From Amoebophrya sp. A120 (lineage: Eukaryota; Protista; Dinoflagellata), in the NCBI GenBank assembly GCA_905178155.1, contig CAJINV010000012.1, positions 926,004-990,003 on the forward strand: 64,000 bases of DNA, given 5' to 3'. Below, one piece after another: positions 3,526 through 31,000 of this stretch (the first letter of the stretch is position 1; each line of letters begins with the position of its first letter). The position numbers and the translations under genes were made by a program. The notes under the pieces were generated by a model. That model worked only from the letters and a program-made list of their open reading frames with translations, ran no database searches and was not told the origin of the DNA.

Positions 3526-6500
3526 CTACAAGAAATTCCGTGCGTGTACTTTTTGTGGCTTTGAACGAACTGCATTGTTCTTGATGCACGCCAGTAAGCT
3601 ATCTTGATCTTGCTCCTCTTCTCCGATTTCTTGATCTTGAACGCCATCATGCGTTCCACTACTTTCTCGCTCCAATCCTCGTGTTCGCCCACTTCTGCCT
3701 TCTTCCCTCACCCCAGCTCCCCCGTCCGCCACACGGCCAAAAGTGCTGGCCGTTCCCATCGTCATCCCAATCGCCGGTAAAATCATCCCGAGACCCATCC
3801 CACTCGTGGCTAATGGGTGGATGTTCTGGTACCGGTCGTGGGCGAGCAAGTCGCTCGCCGCGCAGTTCAAGTGCTCGTACGCCCTACTGCCGCCGGACTG
3901 CACGCGGGAGATCTGCGCCGCTTGCTCGATCAGCATATGGGACTCTCAAGCGTTACATTCTCAACTGTTACGTGATTTGTCATGCAAATTTACCACCAAG
4001 ATCGCCGCGATTAAGCTGCTTCGCATGGCAAATCTTCGAAAGGCTAAACAGCATCAAATCTGTGCCAAATCTGTAATGCATAAGGCGCAATCTTCCCCCT
4101 TTCGCTTATTTTACCGCTCTTGCATTACAAATTCATGTAACAGTTGAGAATGTAACACTTGCAAACGCCATACAGCATCCGGGTGTCGTGCACTTTCGCG
4201 TCCATGGTGGTCGCGTCGGAGATCAGAGACTGGAACCACGCTAAAATCGAGGACACCATGAAGGAAAGCCCCGAGGTCGCCTCCGCATTGATGTTGCAAA
4301 TCGCCCGGTTTACCAGCTGCACGGTGTCCACGTCGAGAGCGACTTTGGAGGAGGATTCCGCTTTTTTCAAGTGTTCTAGCGCGTGTTTTAGGTGGAATAT
4401 GGGAGTGTCAGGATTGAAATCAACAATAAAGTTGAAATAGTATGGCTTGGGCAAAACGTTTATTTCGAGAAAGTTCAAAAATTTTTGTATGCATATTCTG
4501 CATGTAGTTAGTGTACGCATTGATTATTAATAATGGAGGATTAACTTGCATGATTGGTTGATTAGCATGACAGAAATGATAGGATAACTAATCTGATATA
4601 GCTAGTTAACCATAAGCTATGTAGCATTGTGGATTCGTGTGGGAACGGTCGCCAAACTCGAGCGGACTCCTCCTCCTCCTCATCGCCAGTTCGGATAGCT
4701 GTTTCTGCGGTTTCTCCATCCCAAGCCACCAAATGAGAGGCAACTGAAGGCACGACGTGCATGAACAGAGCGACCTTGTGCGAATGTGAACGTCCATGCT
4801 GTGCCTGTGAGTAGAGTTTTGAAATAAGATGTTGCGTAGCATGTTCCTGATAGAACAGAATCAATCTAGAAAACATATTGAGAAACAGAAAGAACAAATG
4901 ACGTAAGCTCTAACGTGAGAAAGAGATGTTTTTTTTTCCAGAGAAAGCGCGAGGGCTCACCGATAATTTGTTGCTTTCCCGGGTACAATGCACGAAAGAA
5001 AGAGCGTAGTTGTGATCAGATATCTTCTTGTCATCTTTTCATCTTTCGTCTTTGTTTTTGCTGGTTCAAATGCGTCTTTCCAAAACACAACCGTAGGGCG
5101 AATGATTAAGACGACAACACAGACTAATAAACGAGTGCTACCACAAAATGCGGCTGGTAGCGACGGGTCTCTTATGGCTCGGAGGGCCTACCTCTCCAAT
5201 GACTCCGTGCACGACTGTCGACTTGGTTTCCCTGGGGACCACTGCGACGTGTTCGGTGAACAGCATGGTCGTTGCCGCGTCCGGTAACGGGAAAGACGAC
5301 CCCAATGGTTTCGAGGACCGGTTCCGTAACTCCCTCCGCAACCTGGACCAGGGCGCGTTGCAGATGCGGACTCGTTTGATGCAGGAGCGGTTGGAGATGC
5401 TCGAAGCCATCCAGAATGGCAGTGTCATTCTATGAAAAGCAAACCTCTCTCTGATCATCCTACGTGTAGTTCTTTTGTCATGCTGGGGATGTTGAGTTTG
5501 TGTCTTGCAAGAACATCAAAAGGGCATGACGAGAGAGGTTTTTCCATAGCATAACTCTTGAACGACTTGCCCAACGCCCCCCTCGAACGCGGCATTGGCA
5601 GTACTTCGAGATCTACTCCTTCGAATACATTCCTGCTTTTTGTTTGCTCTGTAGGATGTTACTTGAACTGCAGCATTGATCTATATTTGCATGACAAGTC
5701 TGTATGTGCATTCGATTCAGCACTGTGCGTGTCCCTCAGTGTTGCAGTTCTTATATACATCCCACAACGCAAACAAAAACAGGCTGGCACCAGATTGGGG
5801 TTTCTGAGTGGTGTCGTCTCCTCAGCTGCATCGGTGGAATTCGTCTGTCTGTCTTACAAGCCCGTATTGTGGATGTCTCCCAAATTGAGTGGTTGTTCGA
5901 ACAGTTGGGTCTGTCCTTTCAGTGGCGGGTATAATTCTAACGCTGGTTTTTTGTCATGCAGAAAGGACGTTTTGATCATGCGGATACAGTGCTTTCCATT
6001 CTACCCACACATACACATTTGCACCAGCAAGAGGCACAGTCTTTGCGTTGAGTACGGGCTTGTCAGTACTAATCCATACAAAAATGACAAACAGATTCCC
6101 CGCGTCGATCGCCACCGTTCTCTGCGTATTTGCGCCCAGTTCTTGATCAACGAGCGCTCCCGCCAGGAGTGGCCCCGCCTGATTCAGATGTTGCCCTCCA
6201 AGCAGCAGCTCGACCAGAAGAAGTTGATGTCCATGCTCCCGCAGATGTTCGGTCCGCAGCCCCTCGCCCTCGGAAACGGTGCCTCTTCCAGCAGTTCCTC
6301 CGCGATTCCGATGGGGTATGCGCCCGCCACTCCGCATTCGCCGACGATGAGCCAGGTATCGATGTTTTCATATGATGAGAGTGATGTTTTTTCGTGTGTG
6401 AGACGACGTAATCTTTCCAATATTCGAAAACAGCAAAACTTCGCGCCGCAGGACTACTCGACGCAGGTCCCCACTGGTTCCGGCTCGCACGCGCAGTCCA

Positions 6501-9500
6501 TGTGCGAGCAGTTCATCTTGAGCATGCAGTCGAACGGGAACACGCAACCCGTGACGCAGCCGAACATGAACGGCCCCATCATCGCTCCGCCGCCCCCGGC
6601 TCCCACTTACACGTCCTCATCGTCGCCCCCGCCGACGATCTTTGACACCATGCCCCCCCAGGTACCGCCGCCTGGTACGACATGGGAGGTCGACGACGAA
6701 GGTGACACTGACGTCTACCAGGCCTCTGCCATCGCGGGTCACGGATTGGGCGTGCCCACGACCACCACGTCCTCCACCACCGACTTTTTCTCCCAGTTCT
6801 CTTCGGTGCAGGTCGTGCGCATGGAGTACACCCCGGCGGCCATTGCCGCGGAGCAGGAGGATGCGACCGCGGAGGATTCCGCGCCGAGTGATCAGGTGCG
6901 AATAGATGTTTCTTTGTATGGCAGTCGGTTATCCGCGTTGGTATGCTTCTGTAATGCGAAAGCCATGCTTTACCACCGGCGCATGATCATGTTGCCCGTG
7001 AGCGCCGTTTTTGGTTGAGCTTAATCTTAATGAGCCTGTACATGTATTCGCACAGGAACAAGGACTCATGATCGAGGACCCGGACTACTACGCCGAATTC
7101 GCGGAGGAGGACATCGCGAAGGCCAAGAAGATCCGGCGGGTCGAGGATGAGATCGCGGCCAAGGCGCAAGCCAAGTCCAAATCGAAGGCGAAGCCCAAGG
7201 CCAAGCCGATCCCGCCGAAGAAGCAGGTGTTCGCACCGAAGAAGATGCCCCGCTAGATGTGAGGACCTGTTTTTACGTTTTGTAGAAGCAGTCGACTCAG
7301 ATAGTGACTCGCTTTTGGAAATTTACAACAACGATTTACAACACCAAGAACTTCACAGCTTTGAAATTGCTTTACTTTAGTGAAGAGGAAGCGCACTCAC
7401 GAAACACTACTACCATTGATTTATTAGTTGACGCGGCTGTGCGCAAGATTACTACTGTTTCGGTCTCACAGAACTTACACTGCCCTTCGGGGTTTTTGGC
7501 GATACAAAACACCGCCCATACTAAAAACAATTACGAACTTCGACTGAAGAATACAAATTTTATGCAAAATAAATGCTGTCTTCGATGTCTTTCTTCGTGT
7601 TTTATGTAGAGCGACTATCTCGGAGTACTGTTTGACGAGTTTACCTCTAATAGCATGCGCCGTAGTTCTTATTTGTCTTTCGACAGTAAGACACAGAGAT
7701 CTTCCGGCCTCTTAGTGCCAATTTCCATTGTCAGCGATACAACGACGAGTCACAGGCTAGCAAGCAATGGAAGAGAAAGCAACACTGCTGATGCTTTTGT
7801 CATAGTACATGAACATACATACATGGGACGAGTGTCATAGAAGTGCAAGCTGTTGACTATGTGCTCCCCCGAGTAAACTTGTAAGTGGACTAAGTGGACA
7901 GAAGCAATGGCAAAAATGAAAAAGCACTGACGTAGAACGAAAGTACCTTTGTGCTCATCTGCTGTTCTGCACGTGATTGAACTGAAAACACAAGTCTACG
8001 CGGAATCGGTGTGGTATTATGTCGCGTCGAAAAAGAAGCACTACTCCGCCCGCAACGTCGGTTTTGATTATTTGAAGCGCGGGTCTCTGGGTGGGTTGTC
8101 GGTTGAATGATTTCTATTTGATGTAGATGCGCGCGCACGAATAGAAGAAGTAGTTGATATCCAAGGGGCGAGTGAAGCGCAAACCTGAGTGACTCCGAAA
8201 TTCCACCTACAGGCTCGCTTCACCTCGTAAGAGAGCTTCACCGTAATAGGAAACTCATGTAAACACCGCACACAGAGAGAAGTTGTAGTAGAGACCGAAC
8301 AGGATGAATCTGAACGGCGACAAGGCCGTCGTGAGCGGCCTTTTGGACCGTAACCAGGTCCAGGAGCGCGTGGAGAACCAGAAGTCGAAGACGAAGCGGT
8401 GGGATCACGTAGATCTCGACGGAGTTACCGGTCTTCCGATTTTCTGTATTCGCGGACTCTACCCGAGCCAGGGTGGAGTTGGTGCTTACCAGCACTCGAT
8501 ACCGTTGCGTCTGCGGCAACACCACCTCGTAGCGGACGCAGAGACGTTCACGCCCAAGGCTACCGCGAAGATGGTGGTATAGTTTGAATATCGCGTCTTG
8601 GGTCGTTGTCATGCAGCTATTGCGATGAAGATCATGACGCTCTACTTCATGTTGTGACTGCAATGGTAACCCGTTCTCCAAAAACAGACACACCTCCTTT
8701 ACTACCGCAAGATGGGTATGCACAACGCCGAGTGGACTCAGCTTATTCACGGGTGCGATTTCCGCCACATCATCGCGAATCTTCAGCACGGGAACATGGA
8801 GGACAAAGTGGAGGAGCTGCAGAACTGGTCGAAAAGCAAGCTCTTCAAGTACCGCATGGCAAACCTGGTGGAGAACAAGAAAAAAGAGAAGGTAATACAC
8901 GGTGGAAGTGCTTCACTTAGTTGCTCTTGTAGCGACAGCACTATCATGCAGGAGTAGATCACTACTCCGTCCGATTTAAACACAGCGTGCATTTTACCAC
9001 AATGACATCTTCAATAAAAACAAACTTTTAATGCCAGAAACTCTTCTTGATCGAGCATGGCGAATTCTGCGTCGCGGAGCGTATGCGATTCCGGAAACGG
9101 ACTGGAGCGCATAAGGACATCACCGCATTTACGGGCTGTGATATGAAGCCGCACGGACGCGGCCGGTATTTCCTCCACGATTTCGCCGCCCAACAGAAAA
9201 CGAAATGCTGCGGCACATTCGTATTAATTTTGTTTCATGTGACCACGTGCTCTTCTCATGCAGGCCTGGTTCCTGATGTCATGTGTCGAGTCTTCTTCTC
9301 CAAAAAACTTTCTCAGGTGCAATACACCGACATTGCGGAAGTTGCACCGCTGGCGCACGACGACGCCATCCGCCAGAAAGCGCTTCCACTGCGGAGGTGC
9401 AACACGGACTTGACGAACCCCTCGATTGAGCACGACGCTTCCGCACTGTCGGCTTTGAGTTTTCTCATGCACCTGTGCGAACTTTACGGTCAGGATGCTA

Positions 9501-12500
9501 CTCAGAAGATGTACACTCCGGCCGATACGCACTGGACGGACGTGGCGCTGGATCACTGGGGCGACGGCGACCTACAGCGGAATAAAATCCACATCTTCCC
9601 CATCATGGCATGTGACCAGGGCAGCCCGGAGGTGCGGTGCGCGCAAATCATCTTCACCATGCTGCAAGGCCACTACACCTTCGGACCCGCGCATTTTAGT
9701 AGTAATAGGGTGAAGAACTGCTGTCCCGAGGCGCGGGTGATTGCTGCCATGATCCGCAAGATGGAGCGTGGTCCATTTGGGACCTGCGAAAATCAGGGGA
9801 AGCTGAAAGGCGCTCTCGCATTTGCGCAGCAAGAATCAGTGCATCTCAAGGAGGACGCGAAAAAGCGACCACACGCTGATCAGCTGGTCGATGCGATGGA
9901 CGCGGCGGATCTGGAAGAGGCGCTGAAGATGATCAGTATTTTTTGCTGCTGCTTTCCAATGATGATCCTTCTAGACCTGCTGCGGAATCTCGTTACTTTG
10001 TGTCTAGTTTTCATCCCCCTCGTCAGGTGCCCCGGTTTAGTCCGCAATAATCTCACCATACCATCGCGCTTCATCCCCCTGGTGATCCCCATCGAGATCC
10101 CCATCAAGATCCCAACTTTTTATGCCCCCCCCCGGGACCCCTCGCGATCCCCCTTGAGTTCTGAATAGAATTTCTTCAACGTGTGGCTTTTCTGCAGCAA
10201 GTCGTCATGTCAGAATGTGCTTAATTCTCAGCCCGGTCGTAATTCTCGTTTGTCGTTGAAGCGGCGTTTTTATTTCCAACATATGAACATCAGATGTCTC
10301 CGGCTTTCATGGGACCGAATGCCGGTGGCGCCGCTTGATGATCACGATTGTATGATATGGAAAAGCGCTTTCCTCGTGGTTCAAGCAAACGAAAATGTAA
10401 TGCGTCAACACTGCAAATTTTATCAAGTTTTGTCATGCGGGGAAAGATCTGTTTTTCCATTTCATAAAGGCTGATGATGTTGAGCAAGAAGCAGCGGGCT
10501 CCGATGAAGTACTTGACGAAGTTTTTGTCTGACACCGAATACCACGATCCGAAGAAAATCTCCAATGAGGAGAAAAAGCGCATCGCGGCTAGCCGCTCGG
10601 GAGTCGCCTCGTATCAACCGAAGGAGGGAGCTATCGATATTGACGATAAGGATGAGGACGCGGAGGACAAGGACTCCGGCTGCCCGGCACAGTACAAGGG
10701 AACCGCAAAACCACTGCACGACAAGTTGTCCAAGATGGAGTTGTGCAAGATGCGGTGCGGATACGACCTCTGCAAGCCCGCCTGGGACTACTTCAACTGG
10801 TTGCGGATGTTTCATCAAAACAGCGCGAAGAACGGCTTGCGGATTTCCGATCCGATCTTTCAGAACTTGTCCAAAATGTTCGTCGGGTGGAACTGCGATT
10901 TCTTCGACAAAGACCACTACTCTCCAGTCGAATTCAATACACTGCAGGCCGTGTACCGCAGCAGAACCTGGCGTGTCCAGTTCTACGAAACAATCAAAAC
11001 GCTCCGGAAGTCGAAGTTGCACCGTGAGCGTGGCTTCCCGGTGATCAACAGAATCATCCTCAAATGGTACGAGGAAAACATGGACTTGCAGTTCGGCGTC
11101 TGGGAGCAGATGGCCAACAAAAAAATGACCATCCAGCTCGCCGACATGGAGCGGGTTTTCGAAGCGGCTTCGTTTCCGATCTCGGCTTCCGCGAAAACGG
11201 CGATGCAGGCGTGGCACCAAAACAAGTGCAATCTGGTCGAGGATTTCGCTTTCGAAAGTAACGCCCCGAAGAGTGCGATGGAAGAGGATGCGGAACAGCA
11301 GTTCAAAATGACGCACTACATGAAAACGATGGCGGACCCGGGGGAGAACTGTATGTGGCGCCGACAGTGCCAGCGGGCGATTGCCATCCAGCACCACGGT
11401 CATTTTTTACCGCCGTTGCGGCTCAAGCAGGCCGGCACAATCAACGATCTACCAGCGGAGGACTACGCGAAGATCTTCTGCATCTCCCGCAACCTGCATG
11501 GCGGTAACGCCCCCGGAAACAATTGCAACGAGGTGCATGTCAACAACACCCGCCAGGAGAAGGCTACCCATGCTGGTACGGAGGATAAATTCCACACCAA
11601 GCGGCTCACCGAGATGCTCCTCCAGCTGGAAACGTTGTACAAAAACCGCAGGTCGCTGCAGTTTCCCGCTACGCAGATCATCCAGCCCATGTACAACAAG
11701 GACTTGGGAGTCAAGGGCGCCACGACGTTGGGCTACCGCGGCGGGGAGGTGGAGGCGATCATCGACGGGGGGATTTCTTCCCAACACGAGCGAAAAGCGC
11801 ACGAGCGGTGCTCCGTGACTTTCTGGCATTCCGCCGACATGGCGCAGAAACTGCAGGAAGAGGGTTGTTTAATCGTCCAGCACATGGTGACGCACAGGCA
11901 CGGCGCTGTTACGGGGCAACACCTCGGAAAGGCCGTCGGTTTTTACCTCATCATCTGCCCGCACACGGAGAAACTGAAGGCCTTCGCTCCGGATGAGTTG
12001 CACGAGTCCCGGTTTTTCTGCGCCGCGCCGTCGCAGCTGCGGTGGTTAGACGCGAAATTCTTGGCGCCGGACATGTGTGAGTGCCCGCTCTATTTCGAGA
12101 TTCCGATGGGACCATGGATCGAGCCAGTCGACATCGTTCTGGAGAAGTTCCTCGACCTCACCGTCGACGAACAGTACGCGCTGACGAAGGACACCGTCAA
12201 AGAATTCCCCAAGTTGTCGAAGTTTTACTGGTCGCGGATGCCGGAGACGGCGCGGAAGAAGGCGTATCGCTACGCCTACGAAGGCGGGTTTGCGCAGCGA
12301 CACATGGACGAGATCGAGAAGAGGTGCAAACCGAAACTGATCATATTCGGCAAGGACGGCGACGAGTTCCGGCGGGAGCAGCAGCAGAACAAGGTGGACG
12401 AGTTAGCCGAACAAGCTGCCAATGATAAGCGGGTGCACCAGGAACAGGTGAATAAGCGGGACTCGATGACACCAATGCAAAAATCACTACTATCTCATCT

Positions 12501-15500
12501 CGTTTTGTATTGCGCAAAATCACGCATGACAAAATGCATGACAAGAAAAGTTCTTCACTCAAAGCTCCGTGCTGTTTTTGCATGACAAATATGAAAATGC
12601 AAAACGAGAAGAGATGGTAGTCGTTTTTGATGTGATAGCCCGACGGCAAGACAAACAATCACACCCGGCTGCCGGCGCAGAAGGTCATCAAGTACTACGG
12701 CAAGGTCGAGGGAAAGACGAAATTGTTAGCGGAGGTCCGGCCAACGCGCTCGTCTGCCCACATGGACGACATTTTGCGGCTGCGGTGGCCGACGGATCAC
12801 GTCGTGAGATCCGCCATCAAGTACGCAACCGCGCCCAGCAAGCCCGACGCCATGGCGAACGCCGAGAGCCTGCTGTTGCCCAAAGTGTTGACGTCGTACG
12901 GCTTGCTGAGGTCGCAGGTAACAGTCGAAGTCGATAAGTGGGAGGAAGTGGACTATGACGTGTATGGTTTTGATGATTACGGATACCGAATCCGCGAACC
13001 GCCGGCAAGCAGCAGCTCCAAACCGACCGGGTTGAGCGACAACGTGAACAACCGGAACAAGCGGAATTCTTTGGGTGGTGATGCTGAGTTTCTGGATGAT
13101 GGTGATACTAAGAAGAAGCAGAGAAAAGGTTAGGTCGTCAGCATATGTCTACTTGATTCAGTATTGGTCTCCATGTTTCTTTACACAATTACTACAGTGA
13201 AAAACATATTTATACACGCGAGTAAGTACGATGAAACTATATCAGTGATCATGAAGAGACAGACCCAACAGCCACTACCTTTCCCTCCTTTTTCAGGAGG
13301 AATTTTCATCAGGATTCACGATAATACTCATTGCTGCACTCCAGCAATGGGAAAATTTAGAAATCGCCTATCTGTGAATAGGTTAACAAAATTCAAACTG
13401 CAGCTGTGCAGTTTATAAAAATTTGATTACACAAAAGATGAAAAGTATGGAAGTGCTGTCGAAGAACGACAGCAATGCAAATTATTAAAAAATACAATTG
13501 AAAAGATAGTGAAATAGTAAAGAAAAGAAGCACTATCAGACATTACCCGAAGGCGCGCCACATCTATCCGAAAAGTGCAAAACTTTTCGTGATGAAAAAT
13601 TAATTTTTGTATACCTTTCGATTTATTTTCCCACCGGTACTACTTGTAATAAGTCACACCATCAAAACTGCTCTCATTCTGACCGGGCCCTTGCTCTGGA
13701 GCTGGAGCTTGTGCTGTTAGTGTTGTCTATTTTCCGCTTTTTCGGTGCAGATTTTGCCAGTTCCGGGTCGGTTTGTTGTGTTGCTGTCGTTTGCGAAGTG
13801 TCGGCTGTGTCGGTTGTCGCGTTCAGGACCAATAGGATTTGGTCAGCAATCCGATCGGCAGGTACGAACCAACTCTCGAGCCACGTCCTGCGCGGCTTTT
13901 TAATCTCGGTCATCAGCGCCGGGTAGGCTGCCAAGGTAGTTGTCCCGAACTCCCTGTGGATGGATAGAAGTACTCGGTTGAAAACGAAACCCAATAGATG
14001 GTCGCGCTTGCACATGAATAAGCTGCACATTACTGCTACGCATCACAAGTTTCAACATTGTTGTAGTTTTTCTGTCATTTCTACTTCTGCTCTACTGTCC
14101 TGGCACGATGTAGAACCACGCCCACCCTAGAAGCACGCTATTTATACTTATCCGGTTCGTAGATAAATCCATGCTTCCGCAGCTCTTCCCACGGGATGAG
14201 TGCGCTGCTCTTCAAGGGCTTCCCGTAAAGGTGCCTCTCGTCGAAGGATCGCGCGTGCAACAGCAAGAAGTCCGCGTCATCAACGCGGTAACATTCTCCG
14301 TTGGCTCTGTGTTATGTGTTGTTGCTGTATTCAAAGCGAATAGCGAGGCCGGCTATGGGAGCGGTACACAATGGCGTCGGGCAGTTGAAAAAGTACAAAA
14401 ATGCCTTGTCATCTTGCAGCGCAAGGCGATCGGCTCTCCCTTCCGGTCTGTGCGCCACACCAAGTTCTTCTCCTGCACGCGATAGAGAGTTCCATCAGGA
14501 TCGCCTCTCTTGACGATGCACCGATCAAACCCGCCGTATTCTCGTTCGGGGGTAACGTACTGCAATCCACTACCGCGGAGCTGGTGCTCAAAGTAATCAC
14601 GAGAATCCGCCTCCCTCAAGGTAGCCGCACTGTAAACGTGCGCCCTTGGGTCAAAGGGAGCCAACAAATGCGGACGTGATTGGAGCAGGTTCTGGAGGTG
14701 TGCCACGAGGTTGGCTGGCGGTATGTTTTCGCTTGGGTCGTTCAGTGAGTAGCCGTCGTAATCCCGTTGTCTATGGACAATGTGAACGAAAACGTCGGCC
14801 GCGTCGTCGCTCGTGATACCAATAAGAGTGAAGTTGTGCCAGGCACTCTTGTGCCCGTTTAGTGCGAGTCTGATCTTTCGCTCCCAGGCGTCGGCTCTGG
14901 AACTGCCACCCTTGATCTGCACCGTGGCCCAGAGCTCCACCGTGTTCAAATTTTGCGTAAAAGTGTCGTCCTTATTTGCCACTAGGACGTCACTACTTAA
15001 CTCGTGGGTTCGTCGGACGATGAAATGCTGCTCCAATAAGCGAATAAATTCACTAACGCTTTTGTCCTCCGCGTTCTTTGGAATGCTGCCCATCAAACAG
15101 CTGCACGACGTTCAGATGCAAACAAAATCAACAACGTACAGCCTCAAGCGTGACCTAAATCAGAGTGAGAGAAAGTATGTGGCTCAGAGTAGTCCTCCGG
15201 GTGGGGTGTTTCTAAATCAGCCTACTATGATCACCAAATCTCAGGGCCCTGCGATGTTCATTCCCATCACGTAGTAAACGCCTACCCTTATTGGTATAGT
15301 ATCAGACCACTCCCTCTACGTTCTTGCGCATCACATTCATTGCAATACTAGACCGATGGGCCATTTCTGTGTTGTTGTTGACATTGATTCATCTGATAGG
15401 ACCGATCCAGTAGTGTCGCGTAGAGCTAGCATCAAAAACATGGCCTCCGTCGCCGATCTTCGACTTGTCTCGCCGCCGTTCCGACACGAATCCACAATGC

Positions 15501-16015
15501 TACATAGCTTATGGTTAACTAGCTAACTCAGATAAGACTATTATAGTTCAAGCATAATCAAGCTGCATGACCAATCAGTTTGGTAGCTAAACATGCACTG
15601 GAGTACTACCATAGAACATAATATGAAACATGCATACAAAAATTTTTGAACTTTCTCGAAATAAACGTTTTGCCCAAGCCATAAATAGTAACTTGTAATG
15701 CATAAAATCGCTACCAGCTGGAAGCCCACTTTCCCAGCGGTGCATGACAAATCTCGGCACCGCCTAAATCCAGTTTGTCATGCTGTTTAGGCACAGAAGG
15801 CGTCTTTTGTCGTGCTACTTTAGCAGCTCTATCGTAGACCCCAAACAGGGTGGCAGTAGGCCTCACTTGCCATCTCTGCAAGAGAGGCACTTCGTGCCTT
15901 ACAGTTTATGCATGAGAAATTATTTCAACTCTGTCGATTTCAATCCTGACCCTTCCATATGGGACTGGAGAAAAATCGTGTCCGGCTGTCCGCATTCCAC
16001 GACTTTCACCGGCAT
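3526..16015 (-). CDS. Hypothetical host protein (~226 aa) whose first intron contains the 11.2-kb transposon
   Basis: Exons 16015-15960, 4392-4173 and 3930-3526 total 681 nt and join in frame: MPVKVVECGQPDTIFLQSH|LKHALEHLKKAESS...HDTRML|IEQAAQISRVQ. The C-terminal frame is less certain. Confidence 0.7.
3936..4172. mobile_element. Introner, TIR family III (237 bp)
   Basis: TIRs tatgggactctcaagcgttacattctcaactgttac / gtaacagttgagaatgtaacacttgcaaacgccata. TSD CAGCA at 3931-3935 and 4173-4177. Removal restores the ORF. Confidence 0.92.
5148..7256 (+). CDS. Transposon accessory gene A: Pro/Ser-rich protein with a Lys-rich C-terminus, function unknown
   Basis: Coding-like exons at about 5148-5418, 6094-6355, 6434-6895 and 7056-7256, bounded by G(T/C)..AG sites (ccag|gtatc, aacag|caaaac, tcag|gtgcg, cacag|gaacaa). 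How exon 1 links to the rest is uncertain. Confidence 0.6.
8304..13133 (+). CDS. Candidate divergent DDE transposase, multi-exon, more than 1200 aa
   Basis: Phase-0 GT-AG introns 8577-8711 and 8892-9037 join the first ORFs. Further exons at about 9038-9930, 10470-12447 and 12639-13133; exons between 9930 and 10470 are unresolved. Motifs CNTDLT (D 9407), IMACDQGS (D 9614), FGPAH (H 9692) and NCNEVHVNNTR (E 11530) resemble the D...D..xxH...E layout of P/hAT-like transposases. The function is inferred. Confidence 0.6.
13674..15096 (-). CDS. Tandem PD-(D/E)XK-like nuclease with a C-terminal NLS-like motif (5' end may extend upstream)
   Basis: Two D...QxK motifs (SDVLVAN...VQIK; FDRCIV...RVQEK). 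GC-AG intron 14404-14307 and GT-AG intron 14147-13954 join in frame to CYRVDDADFLLLH...LIPWEELRKHG and EFGTTTLAAYP...PKKRKI. Confidence 0.62.
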
Positions 16016-16559: not shown

Positions 16560-17812
16560 TTAATCTTTCGCGAATACCCATCTGGCGCTTCCAAACTCGA
16601 CAATCGTCTTTCCGGAAAACGTGTGTCCCTCCGCCGCGAGTTTCTTTTTCTGAAGTAGAGCTGCCGACATGGTGCCTTCGCCCCCTCCTCCTGCGTTCTC
16701 ATCCCCGCCGGCAGACTTTGCTTTGCTTGAGCTTGGCTTGTCCTTTGCCGCCTTGATGTCTTTGCTGGTTTTATTGTTTTTGTCATTGGACTTCCGAACC
16801 GATTTTTCTACCTTCATCTTCTTGTTCTCAGCGGACGAAGTTGCTATCGCCTTGCCCTTCACCTTCTCCGCCTCCCTGACCTTCTCATCCACCACCGCGC
16901 CGCCCTTCAATGAGATTCCGCCGCTGCTGTTCACACACCGCCACCAGGGCACGTCGTTCACATCGCAGTCCCGCATGTATGAAATGCAAAAGTGTCTGGG
17001 TCTGGAAGAGTGTGAACTTGTCATGCAGGTTTTCCATGACTCTTGAGGTCTGGAATGCGGCACCTAGCACGACAGAGTCTGCGACGTCTCTTTCATGCCT
17101 ATCCTGCATGAGAAACTCCCTCCCAACTTGGTCGAAAGTGGACAGCTACTTTTGGCACTCATGCAACACAGACTTTTGCATGGTTCGGATTTAGTATGAC
17201 AAGTTGCAATCTTCCAGACCCAGACATTTTTGCAATCCATAGCATGGCGAATCCGACGTGTCTCGCGTGGTTGGGGAGTTTGAGCGCGACGGCAACGTCC
17301 TTGTAGGTGGTAACTTTTCCAGCGGGGACTATGACTTGCTCAAGCGTTACAATCTCAAACGTTACAATAGAATCTGGAATTTGTGTTGCATGATGAGCAT
17401 GACAGACTCGCACAGCGCTCCACCTTTTGCAATACAAATTTCGCCAGATTGTAGTGGTTTTTGGGGCTCCGGAACTTGTCATGCGCAATCCTATGAGGGT
17501 TGGCTAGATCCTGCACTCTTGCATCACAGATTTCCATATTATATTGCAAACGTTTGAGATTGTAACACCTGAGCGGGTTATAGGGACCTGCTTCACTTTC
17601 TCGTACACGAGTTGAGGGAAGAGCTTCCTGGGAGGGGAGGAGCTTCTATTCTGCATCTTCCCGTTCTGCTGTTTATTTTGGTCGTGACGCTCTTGATTTA
17701 TTTTGGGAGTACTAGTGGTGGTGGTGGTTTTCCGCTTTTCAGTAGTGTTTTTCGAAGAAGACGAGGAGGAGCTGGGCGCTGAGGTCGAAATGGACGAGGA
17801 GAATATTGCCAT
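16560..17812 (-). CDS. Alkyltransferase-like (ATL/Atl1, MGMT family) DNA-damage-binding protein (~241 aa)
   Basis: Exons 17812-17583, 17324-17242 and 16972-16560 (726 nt) give VYEKVKQVPAGKVTTYKDVA...ARHVGFAM...DVPWWRCVNSSGGIS...KKLAAEG. Trp occupies the MGMT catalytic Cys position (PWxR), as in ATL proteins. Confidence 0.88.
16978..17241. mobile_element. Introner, TIR family I (264 bp)
   Basis: TIRs tatgaaatgcaaaagtgtctgggtctggaag / cttccagacccagacatttttgcaatccata. TSD GCATG. Removal restores HVGFAM|RDCD. Confidence 0.95.
17330..17582. mobile_element. Introner, TIR family II (253 bp)
   Basis: TIRs tatgacttgctcaagcgttacaatctcaaacg / cgtttgagattgtaacacctgagcgggttata. TSD GGGAC. Removal restores KQVP|AGKV. 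Confidence 0.95.
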
Positions 17813-18566: not shown

Positions 18567-21306
18567 CTAGTTGTTCTCCCCCGCGCCCCATTCGCCGGTC
18601 CCCATGTTTTTCGTGGACCGCCCATCCACTACCGGGTTCTGGGCCTTCATGTAGTCGTTGTCGATCCCGACGTTCCTGATCGTGTGCTGTTTCGCCGCCG
18701 CGCGCGATTTCTTGATCGCGGCCTGAAACTCCTCAATCAGCGCTATGTCGCTGTCGCTGAACCCGAGCTTTTGCCGGTCGTAGAAAACTTCTTGGAAGTA
18801 CGGGTCGAGCAAAGGTCGCAACGCGAGTTTTTTCTCCCGTATGTTGAAGAGGGATTCGAGGATCATGGCAAACTCCCGACGGAGAAAAGCCTTCATGACC
18901 GCGTCGTTTGGCGGACGGTAGCGGTAATTTTCGTCCTCGTCGTTCTCTTGGTTCTCGTTGACTAAATTGTTCTCTGCTTGGGAATCGACAGAACTGGCAC
19001 CGGGACCGGGCTTGTTCTGCTGGGACCTGAGATTCGAGGTTTTTTGAGGGGGGAAATTGAGGATTTGGGAGAAAGGAGATACGCCTCATTGTTGAAGACC
19101 TCTTGCAGGAAAGCAGTCATCAAGCCGCTGGTGCAATAGAGGACAACAATGCAGCACAACCAGCACACTGTGGACCCTGATGAAGCAGGAAGATTCTCAC
19201 AAATTGAACAAAAAATCACGTACATAATTGAATAAATTGGAACGCAACTCTTTTCTTTGAAATCAGATTTCAAAAAAAAATCAAACTACCTATTGCCGTC
19301 CCCGGAGGACTTTGCGTCCAATTCCTGCTCCTGCGCGAACAACTGGTCGTGGTTGACTTTCCCCACTGCCGCGCCGAAAAAATCATCCTCGTCGGATTCC
19401 TCCTCGGAGTTGTCGCCTGCTCCTGCGGGGGAAGATGAAGCTGCAGCTGCTTGTTGGTGGGGCTCTTGATCTGCTGGTTCATCTGGTGCAGCTGCACCAG
19501 GCCCAAGACCTTCTTCCTCTATTCTTCTTCTTTTAGGGGAACTAGAATGATCTTTGTCAGGTATAATTCTAGCATTACCCCCACCGTAATTGCTGATCCC
19601 GCCGACGACAGACACAGCGTCCTCTCCCGCGACCGACATGTTGTCTTGATGTTCCGCCAGCATTTGTTCCTGCTGCAAAATCTCCGCGGAAATGTCGTGC
19701 ATCGCATTTTCGCCGTTTGTTGTTCCCGCTGCACGACCAGCTGCTCCAGTAGTGGAGGAGGAGGAAGAAGATCCGCCAGCGATGTTGCTCCCGAGATTGA
19801 TGTTCGACGCCGTGCCTCCATTCTCCCCAACATCGTCTATCTCCTCCTGCTTCACCACGCCTGTGGTCTCCGGCGCGACAAACGCGGGAAACACCGTGTC
19901 GGCGTTTTTCGGCAAACAAACGTTCCGCATTTCCTCGCTGTTGTTGAACTCCAAATCCGGTTGGATCACTTCGGCAACGAATTCCCGGACGAGTTTCATG
20001 CACCGTTCCATCTGGAAGCTGTCGTCCGACTGTTGAATCTTTAAATGGTTCAAGATCAACTGCCACAAGATTTTCACCAGGGGGAACTTCTCGACGAAGT
20101 CGATGTTCAGCTCCAGCATCTTTTCAAACACGATCTTCACATCGTTGAAGGATTCATAGTGCTGGCACGCGTGGCCGGTTTGGACCAAGCGCTGTATGGC
20201 TTCAAACGCGTAACACCGATTATCCCAATCCATCTGTTCCTCCACCCACCGTTTCAAAAACGGCATGGATTTCGTGAACCGCGGCCGCTGCTCGATGTGC
20301 TGCAAAACCCGCTTCAGCATGTCGATCGCGTCGATGGGTTTGTTCATGACCGTCGGAAGTTGCTTCTTGATCTTCTCCGCTTTCAGTTTCAAATACTGCC
20401 GCTTCATTTTCATGCGGATTAACTGCTCCTTCGTCAAGGGGCGGCCGTTTTGTCCGGGGAGCAGCGCAACTCCGTGCTTGTTGTACTGGTGTTTGGAAAA
20501 GTGTAACCTCCTCGCGTCCTGCTCCTGCTGCCGTATTCGCGCGATGTTCTGCGCGTGCTTCTTCATCTCCTTGGATTGGTGGTTGTAAAATCCGTCTAGC
20601 TCCCTTTCCTTCTATGACAGTACACAACTCCCCCTCCCCCTTGTTTGTCATGCAAAATACCCAATCCACCCCTTGCCTCTTGGCGCTGTTTGCATGAGAA
20701 GTTCTGGTAGCCCAAATAGCACTACACTCCAGTGCAGATTTGTCATGCAAAACCGGCATTCTTGCTGATGCTTGTATTGCCGCTCATGCTACACAAATGA
20801 GGGGGAGGGGGAGCTGTGCACTGTCATACCTTCCGCGACCGGCCCAGCAGCTGCTCGGCCGGCTTGTTGAAGCGACGCTGCACCTGCTCGAAAGCTTCGT
20901 TGAGCTGTAGTTGTTTTTTATAGGGTTTTGTTGGCGTTGTAGCAGCACTACAAGCAGATCACATTATTTCGTAGTCGTTCTGCAACTGCATCTGCTCATG
21001 GAATAAAACTTCATCTTTAAATAACGCGACTGCGAGGTCCTCGTCGCTGTGGCTGTGGTCCTACATGAAATATTAACACAGACTCAAATAGAAACCTGCC
21101 GTAAATAAACCAGCCAGCAAATACTATACCTTCGCAGCCTCGTACTTCTTCGCGTCTGCATCTTTTGTTTTCCCAGTCGCCTGCAATTTCGCGACTTCCT
21201 CTTTCAAAGCCTTCCATCTTTTTTTCACCCTTTGTCGCACGCGCTCCAGATCCGCCTTCGTCTTAATCTGGAATTCCTCGAAGCCAACCAGCTTGTAGCA
21301 ATCCAT
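18567..21306 (-). CDS. Multi-exon hypothetical protein with an N-terminal J-domain-like region lacking HPD
   Basis: MDCYKLVG...EAAK, then a GT-AG intron, then LNEAFEQVQRRF...RSRK, then an introner, then ERELDGF joined to ORF 19286-20566, then an intron and a last exon ending at 18567. The J-domain resemblance is weak. Confidence 0.65.
20613..20828. mobile_element. Introner, singleton TIR family (216 bp)
   Basis: TIRs tatgacagtacacaactccccctccccct / agggggagggggagctgtgcactgtcata. TSD CCTTC. Removal restores RSRK|ERELD. Confidence 0.92.
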
Positions 21307-25042: not shown

Positions 25043-28000
25043 CTATCGAAACGCCCCACCACTGCCATTCCCTCCACCTCCGACTCCACGACGTCCGAAA
25101 TCTGTTCGCCTTACCACGCGCTCAAAATTATTTAAGTTAAAATACATCCGACGCGGGTGCCAGGAATTTGTGTTGCTATGGTAGGGATTGTTGTGTACAA
25201 CTGAGTTGCTAGTTCTATTGTGGTCTATCTGAGATGAGGAACTATTGTTCGGCGGTCCAGGACCACTTATGTTATACCCACCTGCCCCCGTGCTATCTTC
25301 TATCTTCATCTTCTTACTCAGGTAATATTCCTCCGCGTGCCTGTATCCGTACTGTCTTCTCAACAGCGACAAACAGCAGCCGCACAGCAGTCTTTTCACC
25401 ACGAAGTTCAGTAGGAGTTTCCGGATGAGCAATTGGTACAAGGTCAGAACCAAAGGTTGGAAGAAGCTTTCCCAAAAGGGGATGACTGTCGTGAAAACTT
25501 TTTCCAAAAAGTTTTTCTTCCGCCACCTTTTTGCACTCGCCGCCGCGCTGATCTTCCGCGACAACCCCGTTCCGCTTCCGTGCTGAAAGATCAAGCCAAC
25601 GTCCTCCTCGTCGTCGTCCGTTTGGTTCAAAACAAAGTTTTCGATCATATCAATTGTAAAAGTGTCTGGGTCTGGAATGTTGCCAAGTTTATCATGCATA
25701 TTTTGCATGACCCAGGATGTCTGTAATGCACGGCCTAGCATCACAGATTTTTAGAGGGCTTCCTGATGCCTACTCCGCATGCCAAATGCCCTCCCCGCGT
25801 AGCACAAACTAGACTCCTCTTGCTGGTCATGCAATACGGATTTTTTTAGAATCCAAACGCAGCATCACAAGTTCCAACTTTCCAGACCCAGACATTTTTG
25901 CAATCCATAGATCACAACTTTCAACACTTCTTGCAGAATTTCCTCCACCCCCAGCCAGTACCAAATGCGGCTGAAGCAGGATTTCTTCCGGTTTTTGTAC
26001 TATGACCTGCTCAAACGTTACAATCCCAAGCGTTACAATAGAATTTGGAAATCTGTGATGCAAGAAGTGCATGATCTAGCCAAGTTTCATAGGATTACGC
26101 ATGACAAGTTCCGGAGTCCCAAACCGCACTACAGTCTGCCAGTGCCAGTATTTGTGCTGCATAAAGTGGAATGGTCTGCGAGTCTGTCATGCTCATTATG
26201 CGAGACAAGTCCCAGATTCTATTGTAACGTTTGATATTGTAACGTTTGAGCAGGTCATATGTACGCCAGGTGTTTCCTGTGCTCGAAGTTGTTCTGGAAG
26301 TTATCTTCCGGAAACCTCGGCTTTTGTACTAGATTCTGGTCCACCCGGCTGATTTCCTTAAATTTCGCGTGAAACAGCACCGCCGGGACCTTGAACGTAC
26401 CGTCGGGGAAGCACCACTTCTTGAACTGTTTCTTTTTGAACTCCAGCTCCTTCGCGCGGAGTTCGATTTCCTTCTTCAGTGAAGTGCGGCGCTCCGATAT
26501 CCACAGTAAATTTCCCGTACACGTACACATGCGGTCTCTGCATGAAAGAACTTGGCTTCCATCCTAGTCTAGCATGACAAGTTTTCGGCTTTAAATTGGT
26601 GAAATTTGTGATGCATCTTGTACATGTACGGAAAATTTGTATTGCGTATCCGACTCCAGCATGACGGAAACGTAATTGATCGTGCGGAGTTCCTCTTGCT
26701 TCAGATTCAACTCCGACTGCAGCTGTGTCAATTCCTGCACCGTGATAAACCGATTCTCGATCTGGTCGCTGCCGATCATGGTGTTTGCTGATGTCGTTCT
26801 TGATGTGCTATCAGAAGTTGTACTCGCCGGTCCTAAAAGTTGTGATCCGCCCTTAATATTTTGCTGCTGCTGCTGTTTCAGCGATTGCTCCTCTTGTTCC
26901 GCGGCTGTCAGCTGCACCGTTTTCACGGCCGGGCACACGTAGCTGCACACTTCCGTGATCGTTTTCCCGCTGTACTGATCGACCGCTATCAAATGCAAAA
27001 ATGTCTGGGTCTGGGAGGTTGCCGGGTTTGTCATGCATATTTTGCATGACCAATCGCGCCTGTAGTGCATGACTTAGCATCACAGATTTTTGGAAGGCTT
27101 TCTGATGCCTATTCCGCATGACAAATGTCCTCTCCGCGTAGCACAATCCGGGCTCCTCTTGTTGGTCCTGCAATACAGATTTTTTTAGAGTCCAAAGACA
27201 GCATGACAAGTTTGGATCCTTCCAGACCCAGACATATTTGCAATGCATAACCGCTAGAACCGAACAGTTGATCAGAAACAGCTCCCGCAGTCCGAGGTTC
27301 TTTTCGTGCAGGGGAGAGGCTTCGTTGATGATGTGCTTGATCGTCAGAATGCCGCCGTTCGGGCTGTGCACCGTGAGCATCGTATGGAAGTGTCAGGTTT
27401 GAAATCGTCAAAGTTGAAATAGTTTGTCATGCATAAAGCGGAGACCAGTTGGAAGACCAATTTCCAAGCGGCGCATGACAAATTTTCTGAGCACCGAAAT
27501 CCAATCTGTCATGCTGTTTGGGCACAGAAGAGTGCTTTTGTCATGCTCCTTTAGCAGCTCTATCCCAAACCCTAAATAGGCTCGAAATCTGCCTCACTTG
27601 CAATCCCTGCAAGACAGTCTTTTCGTGCTTTGCATTTTATGCATCACAGATTCTTTCAACTTTGTCGATTTCAATCCTGACACATCCATACATCGGGAGA
27701 AGTTGGTATTGCGCCGGGTGGTATCAAATGCAAAAGTGTCTGGGTCTGGAATAGTGGAACTTGTGATGCGTGTCTTGCATTCCTGGAAAATCTGTGTTGC
27801 ATGAGCAGCAAAAGAGGAGCTTGCTTTGTCATGCAAAAACGCAATTTGTAATGCGTGGTAGGCATCAGCAGGCCTCTCTAAAACTTGTCATGCCTGGCTG
27901 CCATTAATACAAGCGCTTCAATCATGCTCAATTCAGCATCACAGATTTCCAGACCCAGACATATTTGCAGTGCATAGGTGGTCCTGTAAAAGTTGGTCGA

Positions 28001-31000
28001 TCTCGGTGTTGGATGGTTTATTGCCTGTCGTGTCTAGTACCTGCTCGCCACCGCTATTTGTAGGCTTTGTACTAGATGAGGAGCCACTGCTGCTCAAACT
28101 GGTGCTGTTCGACAAAACTTGTGCCTGCAACTCGTACATCAGCCCCGACCGCGTGACCAACTGCAGCACGATCTTCGGCTGCACCAAAATCACGTTCTCC
28201 CGGATCACCATCAAGCGCAACACAAGCTCGGGGTACTCCAGCCAGTCGCTGTCGGGGTAGTAGAATTTTTCATCTGGAACAGGATCGGCTCCTCCGGGAG
28301 GTGGTGGTGGTTGTAATCCTGCAGCCGAGAATGGAACACTTGTGTTCCCTGCTCCTCTCGGCGAAGTTGTACTTCTATCTGCAGGCGCCGCTAAGAGTCC
28401 TCCCCCTGGCCCCATGCGCGGGCTGAGCAGTTGCTGCAGCTGGGGAACGCCTTTTGTTTGCATGGCCGGTCGTGCCCCCGCAATTGTAGAAGTTTGCGCT
28501 CCTGTACTAGCTGCAGGAGGTGCTCGCTCCGCCGTTGGGAACGCCGGGGGTGCGACGGCAAGAACCACTGCATTTCCTTTGGCTGGAGGTAGTTGGAGCA
28601 GGTGTTTTTCTTTTTTATTCATTTTACTGGCACCAGCTGCAGATGTTGATGATGATCGGAAAGCGGAAGCATCTTCGTCGCCCGCTGGTGGCACCATTTG
28701 CGCCTTGTGCTCGCCTTCGTTATACAACACCAGCTGTGGTCCACCTTTTGAAGGAGACGAAGAGGTGGTTATTGAGGTTTTCGACTTCTTCACCTTAGCC
28801 GGCCCTCCGCCCGCCAAACTTTTCGTCGTGTTGTTTGGAACATCCGCAGCTCTGTTTTCCACTACTATCTTTGCAGATTTCTTGCTAGAAGTACCGCCAC
28901 TCGCCGGAGAACTTGTAGTTGCCACAGCAGGAGCGGTCAAGATATTACCGTCTTGGTCTGGAGAAACACTTCTGCTGGTTTTCTTCGAAGATGCTCCACC
29001 TGGATTCCTTATCGCCGCAGAGGTACTAGGGCCTCCTGCTACTAGGGACGAGCTGCTATTTCGTAGTTGCGATGAATCTGCTCTATTCGAAGAAGTCACC
29101 CTCCTGTCACTGCTGCTCGCAGTCGCGCCGGAGGTTCTATTCTTGCTACCGACAGTCTTATCGTCGTTCGCTGCAGCAGCTCCCGAAGCCGGCAGCGAAG
29201 AAGCTGATCGGCTTCTTTTCGATTTCAACGCTTTTGTTTCTGCTCCTGTGCTGTTGGACGTGGTTGGTCCAGCAGGTTCTACTTTTAGACTGGAGGCTCT
29301 ACCAGCATTGCCTATGGTGTTACCCGCAACGGAGGCCGAGCCGGGGGCGTGGGCAGCACTGCCCTCAGGATGCGGAGCAGCTTCCTTATACTCCAAATCG
29401 CTCCTTGCAGGGGATGTGGAGACAAACTTGTCCTCTACTTCCGAAGACAGCGCCCTCGCCTTCGCTGGCGCTGCGCCTGCAGGTCCTCGCGGCATGTCAG
29501 GATTTTTATCGCCACCTGCACCAGCCCCCACCAACGGCAATTTCGTGCCGTTTGTGTCTTTCTCCTCATCTTCATTCCCACCCGGTAGATGAAGTGTTAA
29601 ACTCGTCCCATTCTGTAGCGGCCCCCCGGATGCTGGCGAGCCACTGCTGCTGCTGCTCTCCTGACCAGGAACTACACCGCCTGCCCCACCACTCGTCCCA
29701 CCCGCCGCGTTGCTATTTGCTTTCGCTGACAACAGCATGCGGTTAAGAAACGCCAGGGCGCTGCTCGTCACAATAATTGGCTCGGGCTCGTTTACCGGCA
29801 TCAAAATGCGGTTTTTGATTTTCCCTTTCGGCCCCTTCAAAGGTTTGATATTCACATTCTGCTGGCTTGAATGATCTTGATTGCCGCTTGCTGGTGGAGA
29901 AGCTTTCATACTCGAAGACGCTAGTAGAGATCCTGGCCGGGGACTTCTATTTGCAGTTGTTAAGGACGAGCCACCAGCGTTTTTACTGTTGGATCGGATC
30001 CGCACCATCTCTGTCACACTCTTGCTGGTGGTCGTGTTAATATTCGCGACTACATTTGGCGTTGGTCCTGGAGGTTGTACTGAGTTGTCAAATATCGTCG
30101 GTTTCAGCACTCCGTCAGACACGCAGCAGGCGTGGGAGAAGCATATGGGGTTCTCAAACGTTACATCCTCAGCTGTTACATGAAATTTGTAATGCAAGAA
30201 TGGCAAAAAGTGAAAGGGAAAACGTTGTGCCTTTTGCATTACAGGTTTGGAGCAGATTGTAATGCTATCTAGCGCGTCGGGAAGTTGTCATGCGGAGAAG
30301 GCTTGATCGCGGTAAAAGTGATAGTGTTTTTGCATGACAAATCATGTAACAGTTGAGAATGTAACATTTTGAGAACGCCATAAAGCAAAGTTGCTGACTC
30401 GGCTGCAGAAACCTCGCGACGATAACGCCGGTGAGCAGCAAGAGAAAGATAATCTGCAGATAGTGCTGTAGGGACAAAACGGTGAGCATGACGAAGGTAA
30501 GGAAGTTGTCCCGGCCTCGCTCCCCATCGGGGTGAATCAATTCGTCCGCTTCGGTGGTCTGGAAGAAGCTCAGACTGTTGGTGGCCTTCAAGCTCAGCAT
30601 GAAGAAGTGCCGGAAGGTCCGCTCGCTCGGGGGGGAAGGAGACGACCACAGGGGGGATGTGGAAGTAGATGTTGTGCCCGCGGTGGTCAAGGACGTGGTC
30701 GTGGAGGACGCGTGGTCAGCAGGATCACCATCTCGTCCCGCCCTGAGCGCCAGAACATCTTCCAACAGGTCGTACATAAGCCAGTAGAGCAAGCAGGACA
30801 AGCCATAATTGACCACCGCAAACACGGTGACAAACCCGATTTCAAAAGCCAACACGTAGGTAATCAGTTGCTTCATCGAGATGCGGTTGACACAAAAGTC
30901 CCAAAGGAAATCCCCGACGGCCTTCGTGGACGTCGACAAGGGTCCGGCCAGCATCTGCCCCCGCCCGGCACCACCGCCCTGATGGAACAGCCCGCCGTCG

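Follow-up and report, generated by a model that had tools for sequence, protein, structure and literature searches.

Within a 64,000-nucleotide stretch of Amoebophrya sp. A120 (contig CAJINV010000012.1, positions 926,004 to 990,003 of the forward strand; hereafter the window), we found an 11.2-kb element with TATGG..CCATA ends that carries ORF-A, a predicted DDE transposase and a tandem PD-(D/E)XK nuclease. We observed the structure of the nuclease gene, the ends of the element and their target duplication, conserved active-site residues, and a gene order repeated at diverged loci of Amoebophrya AT5.2. The nuclease very probably belongs, as a regular gene, to a family of three-gene cut-and-paste transposons. 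For its function we favor, with slightly less than even confidence, the explanation that the family's nuclease would cut the donor site left by excision, and that repair would copy the element back. The features of the nuclease gene are as follows.

13674 to 15093, minus strand: tandem PD-(D/E)XK nuclease gene, 375 amino acids, three exons (15093-14405, 14306-14148 and 13953-13674), from splice models compared with a homolog profile
14307 to 14404, minus strand: nuclease intron 1, GC-AG, 98 nt; at the same codon, relatives stop or run on into the intron
13954 to 14147, minus strand: nuclease intron 2, GT-AG, 194 nt, from splice models
14656 to 15093, minus strand: domain 1 (about residues 1-146), generic PD-(D/E)XK fold, DUF4365-like, from VIA structure matches, ESM Atlas and conservation
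E9 (15069), D35 (14991), Q59 (14919) and K61 (14913), minus strand: domain 1 active site
13797 to 14631, minus strand: domain 2 (about residues 155-335, across both introns), I-Ssp6803I-like, from VIA and Foldseek
E161 (14613), D190 (14526), Q207 (14475) and K209 (14469), minus strand: domain 2 active site
13728 to 13745, minus strand: PKKRKI basic motif resembling a nuclear localization signal (residues 353-358), from the sequence

The nuclease gene is real and lies where the initial annotation had placed a minus-strand gene, although its start is the ATG at 15093 and not 15096; the MG..P start common to the relatives and the window nuclease supports this ATG. We built 12 in-frame splice models and scored each against a profile of 15 homologs. 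The top model reached 290 bits and gives the 375-residue protein (runner-up, 282 bits), so that the two introns proposed earlier do join in frame (14404-14307 and 14147-13954). Exons 2 and 3, taken singly, match the homolog profile (E 7e-17 and 3e-8), and several relatives stop or derail at the codon of intron 1. Both D...QxK motifs pointed out at first were found (D35/Q59/K61 and D190/Q207/K209), as was the Y..DDADFL segment. The PKKRKI tail is likewise present, but several relatives lack it, including P0003, P0006, P0023 and P0024. As had been described, the gene is convergent with the transposase gene, and the stop of the plus-strand transposase lies 540 bp away.

We searched 1.84 billion representatives by phmmer with nuclease exon 1 and obtained 21 matches, 20 of which are true relatives (26-37% identity); the other, P0021, was dropped as an unrelated repeat protein. 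The names on the 20 clusters are from Amoebophrya AT5.2 (14), Amoebophrya A25 (1) and a transcriptome only (1), four clusters have none, and no other organism appears. The 14 AT5.2 paralogs with sequence share a mutual identity of only 22-56%, and the AT5.2 nuclease genes have 19 gene numbers at least 160 apart, suggesting that the pairing of nuclease and transposase is old and dispersed. A word-based homolog search returned nothing for exon 1 and, for the alignment, only three proteins, all already known; a metagenome scan gave no match for the nuclease. The A25 model, P0015 (CAD7970936.1), has a membrane-transporter-like front joined to a nuclease fragment, and this gene model is probably chimeric. 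Transcriptome contigs are the source of three relatives; of these, P0003 and P0024 read through the intron 1 junction, indicating that relatives are transcribed and spliced. The contigs of these two are 5,900 and 6,421 nt long, approximately the convergent transposase and nuclease summed. Raw RNA runs X4-X6 had 0 reads on 4300-15800; RNA contig runs X7/X8 contained spliced host genes of the window and no contig on the nuclease bins, and the latter was not counted as evidence.

Gene neighbourhoods were compared in the AT5.2 protein set (PMC6482013, data file S4) in gene-number order, covering about g1-g11350 and the first 400 residues of each protein. The comparisons were made by eye on short motifs, with 10 of 40 DQGS and 10 of 29 DQAS motif places covered. 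At least ten nuclease homologs lie in this range, five known from the homolog search (g2353, g6840, g8368, g8528 and g9332) and five found by motif (g2693, g3742, g6668, g9708 and g10092, the last first met beside a transposase match and later again by motif). The results showed that all ten lie at a distance of one or two gene numbers from a large protein with the motifs of the window transposase (g2354+g2355, g6839, g8367, g8527, g9331, g2692, g3743, g6667, g9710+g9711 and g10093), one small gene model separating g9708 from g9710+g9711; by chance, adjacency is expected at about 0.005 per locus. At nine of the ten loci an ORF-A-like protein lies beyond the transposase, as in the window, and at the two loci with a split transposase model the nuclease is on the C-terminal side, again as in the window. 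When transposases were found by a motif blind to the neighbours, seven of nine had an adjoining nuclease. By eye, nuclease subtype tracked transposase subtype at 5/5, 2/2 and 3/3 loci. Nine further AT5.2 nuclease loci lie beyond g11350; the annotation table, consulted for seven of them, shows an adjoining unannotated model of 1.8-4.4 kb in each case. The initial annotation had named homologs that are ordinary host genes as evidence against its proposal; instead, every AT5.2 homolog in range adjoins a related transposase.

The fold of the nuclease was taken from an AlphaFold model of P0003, which is 33% identical to the window protein, with an 18-row alignment. This model (predicted local distance difference test, pLDDT, 85.7) has two PD-(D/E)XK domains. 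Its residues 158-334 matched the homing endonuclease I-Ssp6803I (2ost_A) with Z 14.1, a root-mean-square deviation of 2.7 and 140/148 residues aligned, the best among the 50 VIA matches listed, followed by MepB (Z 10.6) and the structure-specific Hjc (Z 8.3); Foldseek likewise matched domain 2 to I-Ssp6803I, at E 7.6e-6. Residues 1-146 matched restriction-enzyme nuclease domains (Z 5-5.6 by VIA), and the ESM Atlas features of exon 1 reached 0.92 to clusters with 20-39% DUF4365. Foldseek also found three uncharacterized giant-virus proteins (A0A076FH51, A0A1V0SIJ8 and A0A3G5A8P9), which match across both domains over about 350 columns with E 3e-12 to 3e-10 and 13-14% identity. Sequence comparison gave no relevant Pfam match, including PDDEXK_5, DUF4365 and YqaJ, in the window exons or 18 homologs, and no real match to the nuclease in PDB. 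The nuclease fold suggested at the outset was thus borne out by structure, both halves of the P0003 model matching PD-(D/E)XK structures, and the window protein is predicted to carry two such domains with both E..D..QxK sites conserved. Among 24 homolog rows, which include four near-duplicate pairs, E9 is kept in 19, D35 in 20, Q59 in 23, K61 in 24, E161 in 23 and Q207 in 20, most misses at active-site columns being gaps. The second-site D and K are likewise conserved in the alignments of relatives, as are the basic residues of domain 2. An alignment brings the motifs of the two halves together but is not significant (hhalign probability 0.35%), so they would be an old fusion or duplication.

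The other features of the element and the small inverted-repeat elements of the window, or miniature inverted-repeat transposable elements (MITEs), are as follows.

4441 to 4648, plus strand: left terminal inverted repeat, begins TATGG
15476 to 15683, minus strand: right terminal inverted repeat, ends CCATA
4436 to 4440: left AATAG target duplication, 5 bp
15684 to 15688: right AATAG target duplication, 5 bp
4398 to 15959 (4398-4440 and 15684-15959): host MITE interrupted by the element; uninterrupted relatives at 27383-27690 and 61172-61484
8304 to 13133, plus strand: predicted DDE transposase gene, about 1,275 amino acids, open-frame model
8577-8687, 8892-9037, 9213-9263, 9936-10293, 10350-10494 and 12448-12638, plus strand: six GT/GC-AG transposase introns, some donors with alternatives
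D207, D335, H361, R452-W453 and E823: putative residues of the transposase
5148 to 7256, plus strand: ORF-A, conserved third gene, its middle of low complexity and its tail K/A-rich, from reading-frame pieces
16978-17241, 17330-17582, 20613-20828, 25648-25909, 26001-26259, 26987-27249, 27383-27690, 27722-27976, 30144-30382, 31322-31538, 52024-52267 and 61172-61484: MITEs with TAT..ATA ends and a perfect 5-bp duplication

The inverted repeats of the element are 76% alike over 217 nt and 98% alike in the outer 57 nt. An equally good reading of the flanks gives a 7-bp AAATAGT duplication with the ends one base further in. The element is inserted into a high-copy MITE, 43 bp from the end of the latter, and in run X1 many related contigs join across the element. 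The interior of the element forms one 10.9-kb contig at single-copy depth in the same run, and no sister copy of it was found among the X1 contigs at 80% likeness or above. Low-depth run X3 covered parts of the host flanks and left 14 of 16 element bins without any cover, which was not used as evidence. If the element, its host MITE and one of the two duplications are taken out, a minus-strand frame is open for 133 codons across the junction; the 11.5-kb composite may conceivably sit in a host exon and need removal as one intron. A Pfam scan of the element (11 reading frames) detected no AAA+ ATPase or other nucleoside triphosphatase family and no methylase, and no Rfam family, introns included, was found in 4398-15959. 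The window contains 27 short inverted-repeat candidates with TAT..ATA ends. A perfect 5-bp duplication flanks 12 of them, compared with a random expectation of 0.0012 and 2/702 by cross-pairing; these 12 belong to several distinct families of 216-313 nt.

All gaps in 8304-13133 can be bridged in frame by GT/GC-AG introns. The putative D335 and E823 are 488 residues apart, and a His stands 26 residues after D335, as GxxH; by eye this His is also present in the AT5.2 relatives, the single-model ones of which have 1,058-1,656 amino acids. The transposase has no match in Pfam, PDB by sequence or the Atlas, PHROGs gave only E 0.1-0.3, and a homolog search with the core returned nothing, which is a weak negative. 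Metagenome matches L001-L004 were rejected as four chance matches of 11-14 residues. Classification as a Mutator-like element (MULE) was dropped, since g2354 does not share the chosen Glu and the duplication has a length of 5 bp; there is no MULE Pfam match either. Mutator/MULE elements make target duplications of about 9 bp, versus 5 or 7 bp in the window element. The RW motif and ExxF are signatures of hAT, and the window transposase has both, the latter at the putative Glu. It also resembles hAT in its long D-D-E spacing and the His after the second Asp, and a C/DxxH signature has been described between the second Asp and Glu (PMC10045372). Target duplications of 5-8 bp are reported for hAT5, hAT6 and hAT7, and the 5-bp duplication here is like that of hAT5 (PMC12730594). 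The window transposase nevertheless differs from hAT in having no hAT Pfam match, no Cys or Asp three residues before the His, and a three-gene element. The pattern fits the C/DxxH group and, by its signatures, hAT best, so that the transposase looks hAT-like by motif while its superfamily is left open.

IS3EU/GingerRoot elements have a compact integrase-type core with about 35 residues between the second Asp and Glu and a 6-bp duplication, whereas the window element has 488 residues between D335 and E823 and a 5-bp duplication. By eye, no conserved Glu was seen near +35 of the second Asp in the transposase relatives, and of the MITE candidates 12/27 have a 5-bp duplication and 0/27 a 6-bp one. 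The termini are alike, TAYGG..CCRTA in IS3EU/GingerRoot (PMC12730594, PMC10045372) and TATGG..CCATA here. ORF-A shares motifs by eye with g8526, g6838, g9330, g2356 and g10094 and has no Pfam match; it is present at 11 of the 12 full-size transposase loci seen in AT5.2, among them the two without a nuclease neighbour.

For the job of the nuclease, we propose a tentative three-step mechanism. The hAT-like transposase would excise the element and leave the flanks hairpin-sealed or crudely rejoined, as by Hermes, Transib and Muta1. hAT/MULE-type transposases excise on their own, and the hairpins left on the flanks by hAT, Transib and MULE are not opened by the transposase (PMC5499845). The single-chain nuclease, with its two intact active sites, would then cut both strands at the donor site once it is vacated. 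Its guide would be the transposase complex or the hairpin or scar structure and not a fixed flanking sequence, since insertion sites differ. Homologous repair from the sister chromatid would restore the donor copy, so that cut-and-paste would give a net gain. TnpB and IscB of IS200/IS605 have been shown to do this job in bacteria, as RNA-guided, RuvC-type nucleases beside a different transposase, whereas no Rfam family was found in the window element and its enzyme would be protein-guided. These bacterial transposon-borne nucleases cut the donor joints of the vacated site and raise retention of the element (10.1101/2023.03.14.532601). The fixed linkage, the old divergence (22-56%) and the two conserved active sites suggest selection for cutting in the interest of the element. 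Donor-site cutting that drives copy-back is therefore a possible job for the nuclease, though we would not put it at an even chance.

Several points weigh against this mechanism. The 12 perfect MITE duplications represent 11 different 5-mers, so a protein would meet no fixed sequence at the vacant site, and enzymes of the I-Ssp-type fold normally recognize 23 bp of sequence (PMC3384342). Hairpins may already be handled by host enzymes, since AT5.2 has genes for a ligase-4-like protein and for two DRMBL proteins of the SNM1/Artemis family; no Ku70/Ku80 term appeared in the part of the AT5.2 annotation table covered, about two-thirds of it. Two of the nine transposases, g6679 and g11208, and the fragment g1648 have no annotated nuclease neighbour, and the AT5.2 loci are known from gene order, not from terminal repeats or strand. 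The fold was predicted for a relative and not for the window protein, whose exon 1 folded alone at pLDDT 35, and for a transposase without a profile match the hairpin chemistry follows from motif likeness. The gene models flanking g6679 and g11208 are long and were seen in their first 400 residues; fusions like P0015 could hide nucleases adjoining these two genes.

An alternative is that the fused nuclease pair acts as a sequence-specific homing or targeting enzyme. It would recognize a single long, asymmetric site, lying in the ends of the element itself or in a target that recurs in the genome, for instance the ends of other TAT..ATA elements, and a break made there would direct insertion or recombination. 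The closest fold among the matches listed is the sequence-specific I-Ssp6803I, the basic residues of domain 2 are conserved, and this copy of the element sits within a high-copy MITE, 43 bp from the MITE's end. I-Ssp6803I (PDB 2OST) shares with domain 2 the fold over 140/148 residues and a D..QxK-type site, but it is a single-domain cyanobacterial homotetramer with a 23-bp site (PMC3384342), whereas the window nuclease is a two-domain single chain with spliceosomal introns in a eukaryotic DDE transposon. Unlike the I-Ssp6803I type, it does not lie in a self-splicing intron or intein but in an element with terminal inverted repeats. KolobokP offers a precedent, being a eukaryotic DDE transposon of the C/DxxH group whose second gene goes back to a homing endonuclease (PMC9587614). 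It occurs in animals and has a His-Me finger nuclease and long terminal direct repeats (PMC9587614), versus the tandem PD-(D/E)XK nuclease, simple inverted repeats, three genes and dinoflagellate relative here. Only a single insertion site is known, the MITE target duplications are varied, and unrelated host genes flank the AT5.2 copies, all of which make the homing alternative unlikely.

The initial annotation had regarded a restriction-fold nuclease as unusual cargo for such a transposon. This holds only in part, since KolobokE and ISL2EU are DDE transposons with PD-(D/E)XK partners whose function is unknown, although these are single and of the lambda-exonuclease/YqaJ type (PMC9587614, PMC4482050), and a tandem homing-type enzyme is of a different kind. 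Accessory nucleases on eukaryotic DDE elements are thus already known as the lambda-exonuclease type and, in KolobokP, the His-Me homing type (PMC9587614, PMC4482050). Lambda exonuclease resembles domain 1 only, with Z 4.7 by VIA, against Z 14.1 for I-Ssp6803I, and there is no YqaJ Pfam match. The target of Kolobok is TTAA, whereas the window element has AATAG and the MITEs have varied 5-mers, which separates it from Kolobok and ISL2EU. ISL2EU targets AT and begins with GG (PMC4482050), in comparison with AATAG and TATGG here.

The comparison with TnsA of Tn7, made from the start, suggests another alternative, an obligate partner: the transposase would cut the transferred strand only, and the nuclease the other strand at each end. 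TnsA is, like the window nuclease, a PD-(D/E)XK protein encoded beside a DDE transposase. The near-strict linkage and the co-segregation of subtypes would fit such a partnership, and the transposase is too divergent to classify, leaving its chemistry open. However, TnsA was not among the 50 VIA matches listed nor among the Foldseek matches listed, and it has its own C-terminal domain in place of the second nuclease domain found here. Tn7 has an AAA+ ATPase regulator, and no TnsC-like ATPase was detected in the element. The transposase also keeps the RW motif and the His after the second Asp, as do hairpin-forming enzymes, and two of nine transposases have no annotated nuclease neighbour. With this weak support, the TnsA-like role appears quite improbable.

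A similarly low probability falls to an addiction or competition module, in which the nuclease would be toxic to the host, rivals or viruses, ORF-A would neutralise it, and loss of the element would be punished. The conserved third gene accompanies the pair at nine of ten loci, and full-length structural matches occur in the giant viruses AaV, Klosneuvirus and Hyperionvirus (E 3e-12 to 3e-10). Against this, ORF-A also adjoins both nuclease-less transposases and fits a transposition helper as well, and no methylase was detected in the element. Finally, passively captured or neutral cargo, an idea of the initial annotation that agrees with the single-copy interior and the lack of a sister copy at 80% likeness or above in run X1, is very unlikely and largely refuted, because all ten homologs in range adjoin a transposase, none stands alone, and the active sites are conserved at 22-56% identity.

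Elsewhere in the window, a multi-gene block of 7-8.7 kb with no obvious annotation is repeated in tandem at 33000-59500, in three to four diverged copies with spacings of 6.3-8.7 kb, and a 51-nt tandem repeat of at least three copies lies at 49467-49639.

The large element and the window MITEs have in common the TAT..ATA ends and the 5-bp length of the duplication, which makes the transposon family a candidate mobilizer of Amoebophrya introners. In the X7/X8 contigs, in which splicing is evident, 16973-17582 and 20608-21129 are skipped, and these gaps begin at the MITE duplication; at least three MITEs lie inside gaps skipped by spliced contigs, with non-canonical boundaries in one case. Farhat et al. 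(PMC7789003) described inverted-repeat introners with 3-5-nt direct repeats, listed no transposase for A120 and only two putative ones for A25, a scarcity that they read as ruling out a general transposase-driven spread of introners. The introner table of PMC12130899, with 118 Amoebophrya rows of which two are considered here, may also bear on the introner claim. Most of transposase intron 5 is taken up by an inverted-repeat element of 116 nt (10351-10466) with TAT..ATA ends and no duplication, so an introner may have inserted into the autonomous transposase gene.

In the literature covered, with Repbase and most subscription journals outside its scope, we found no description of this family or of a tandem I-Ssp6803I-like partner. 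It is conceivable, if still short of probable, that the family is a new, possibly superfamily-level DDE group with TAT..ATA ends, a 5-bp duplication and three genes, which would need or exploit its own single-chain double PD-(D/E)XK endonuclease, of a type shared with giant viruses, and would include the missing autonomous introner drivers. The finding would add a nuclease type to the eukaryotic cut-and-paste transposons, and a compact single-chain homing-type enzyme with two predicted active sites is interesting in its own right. It also provides a small, intact-looking two-protein system for probing accessory nucleases of transposons, a question left open for ISL2EU (PMC4482050). With a transposase that profiles do not see and that has MITE-like ends, transposase-driven spread of introners in Amoebophrya would become directly testable.

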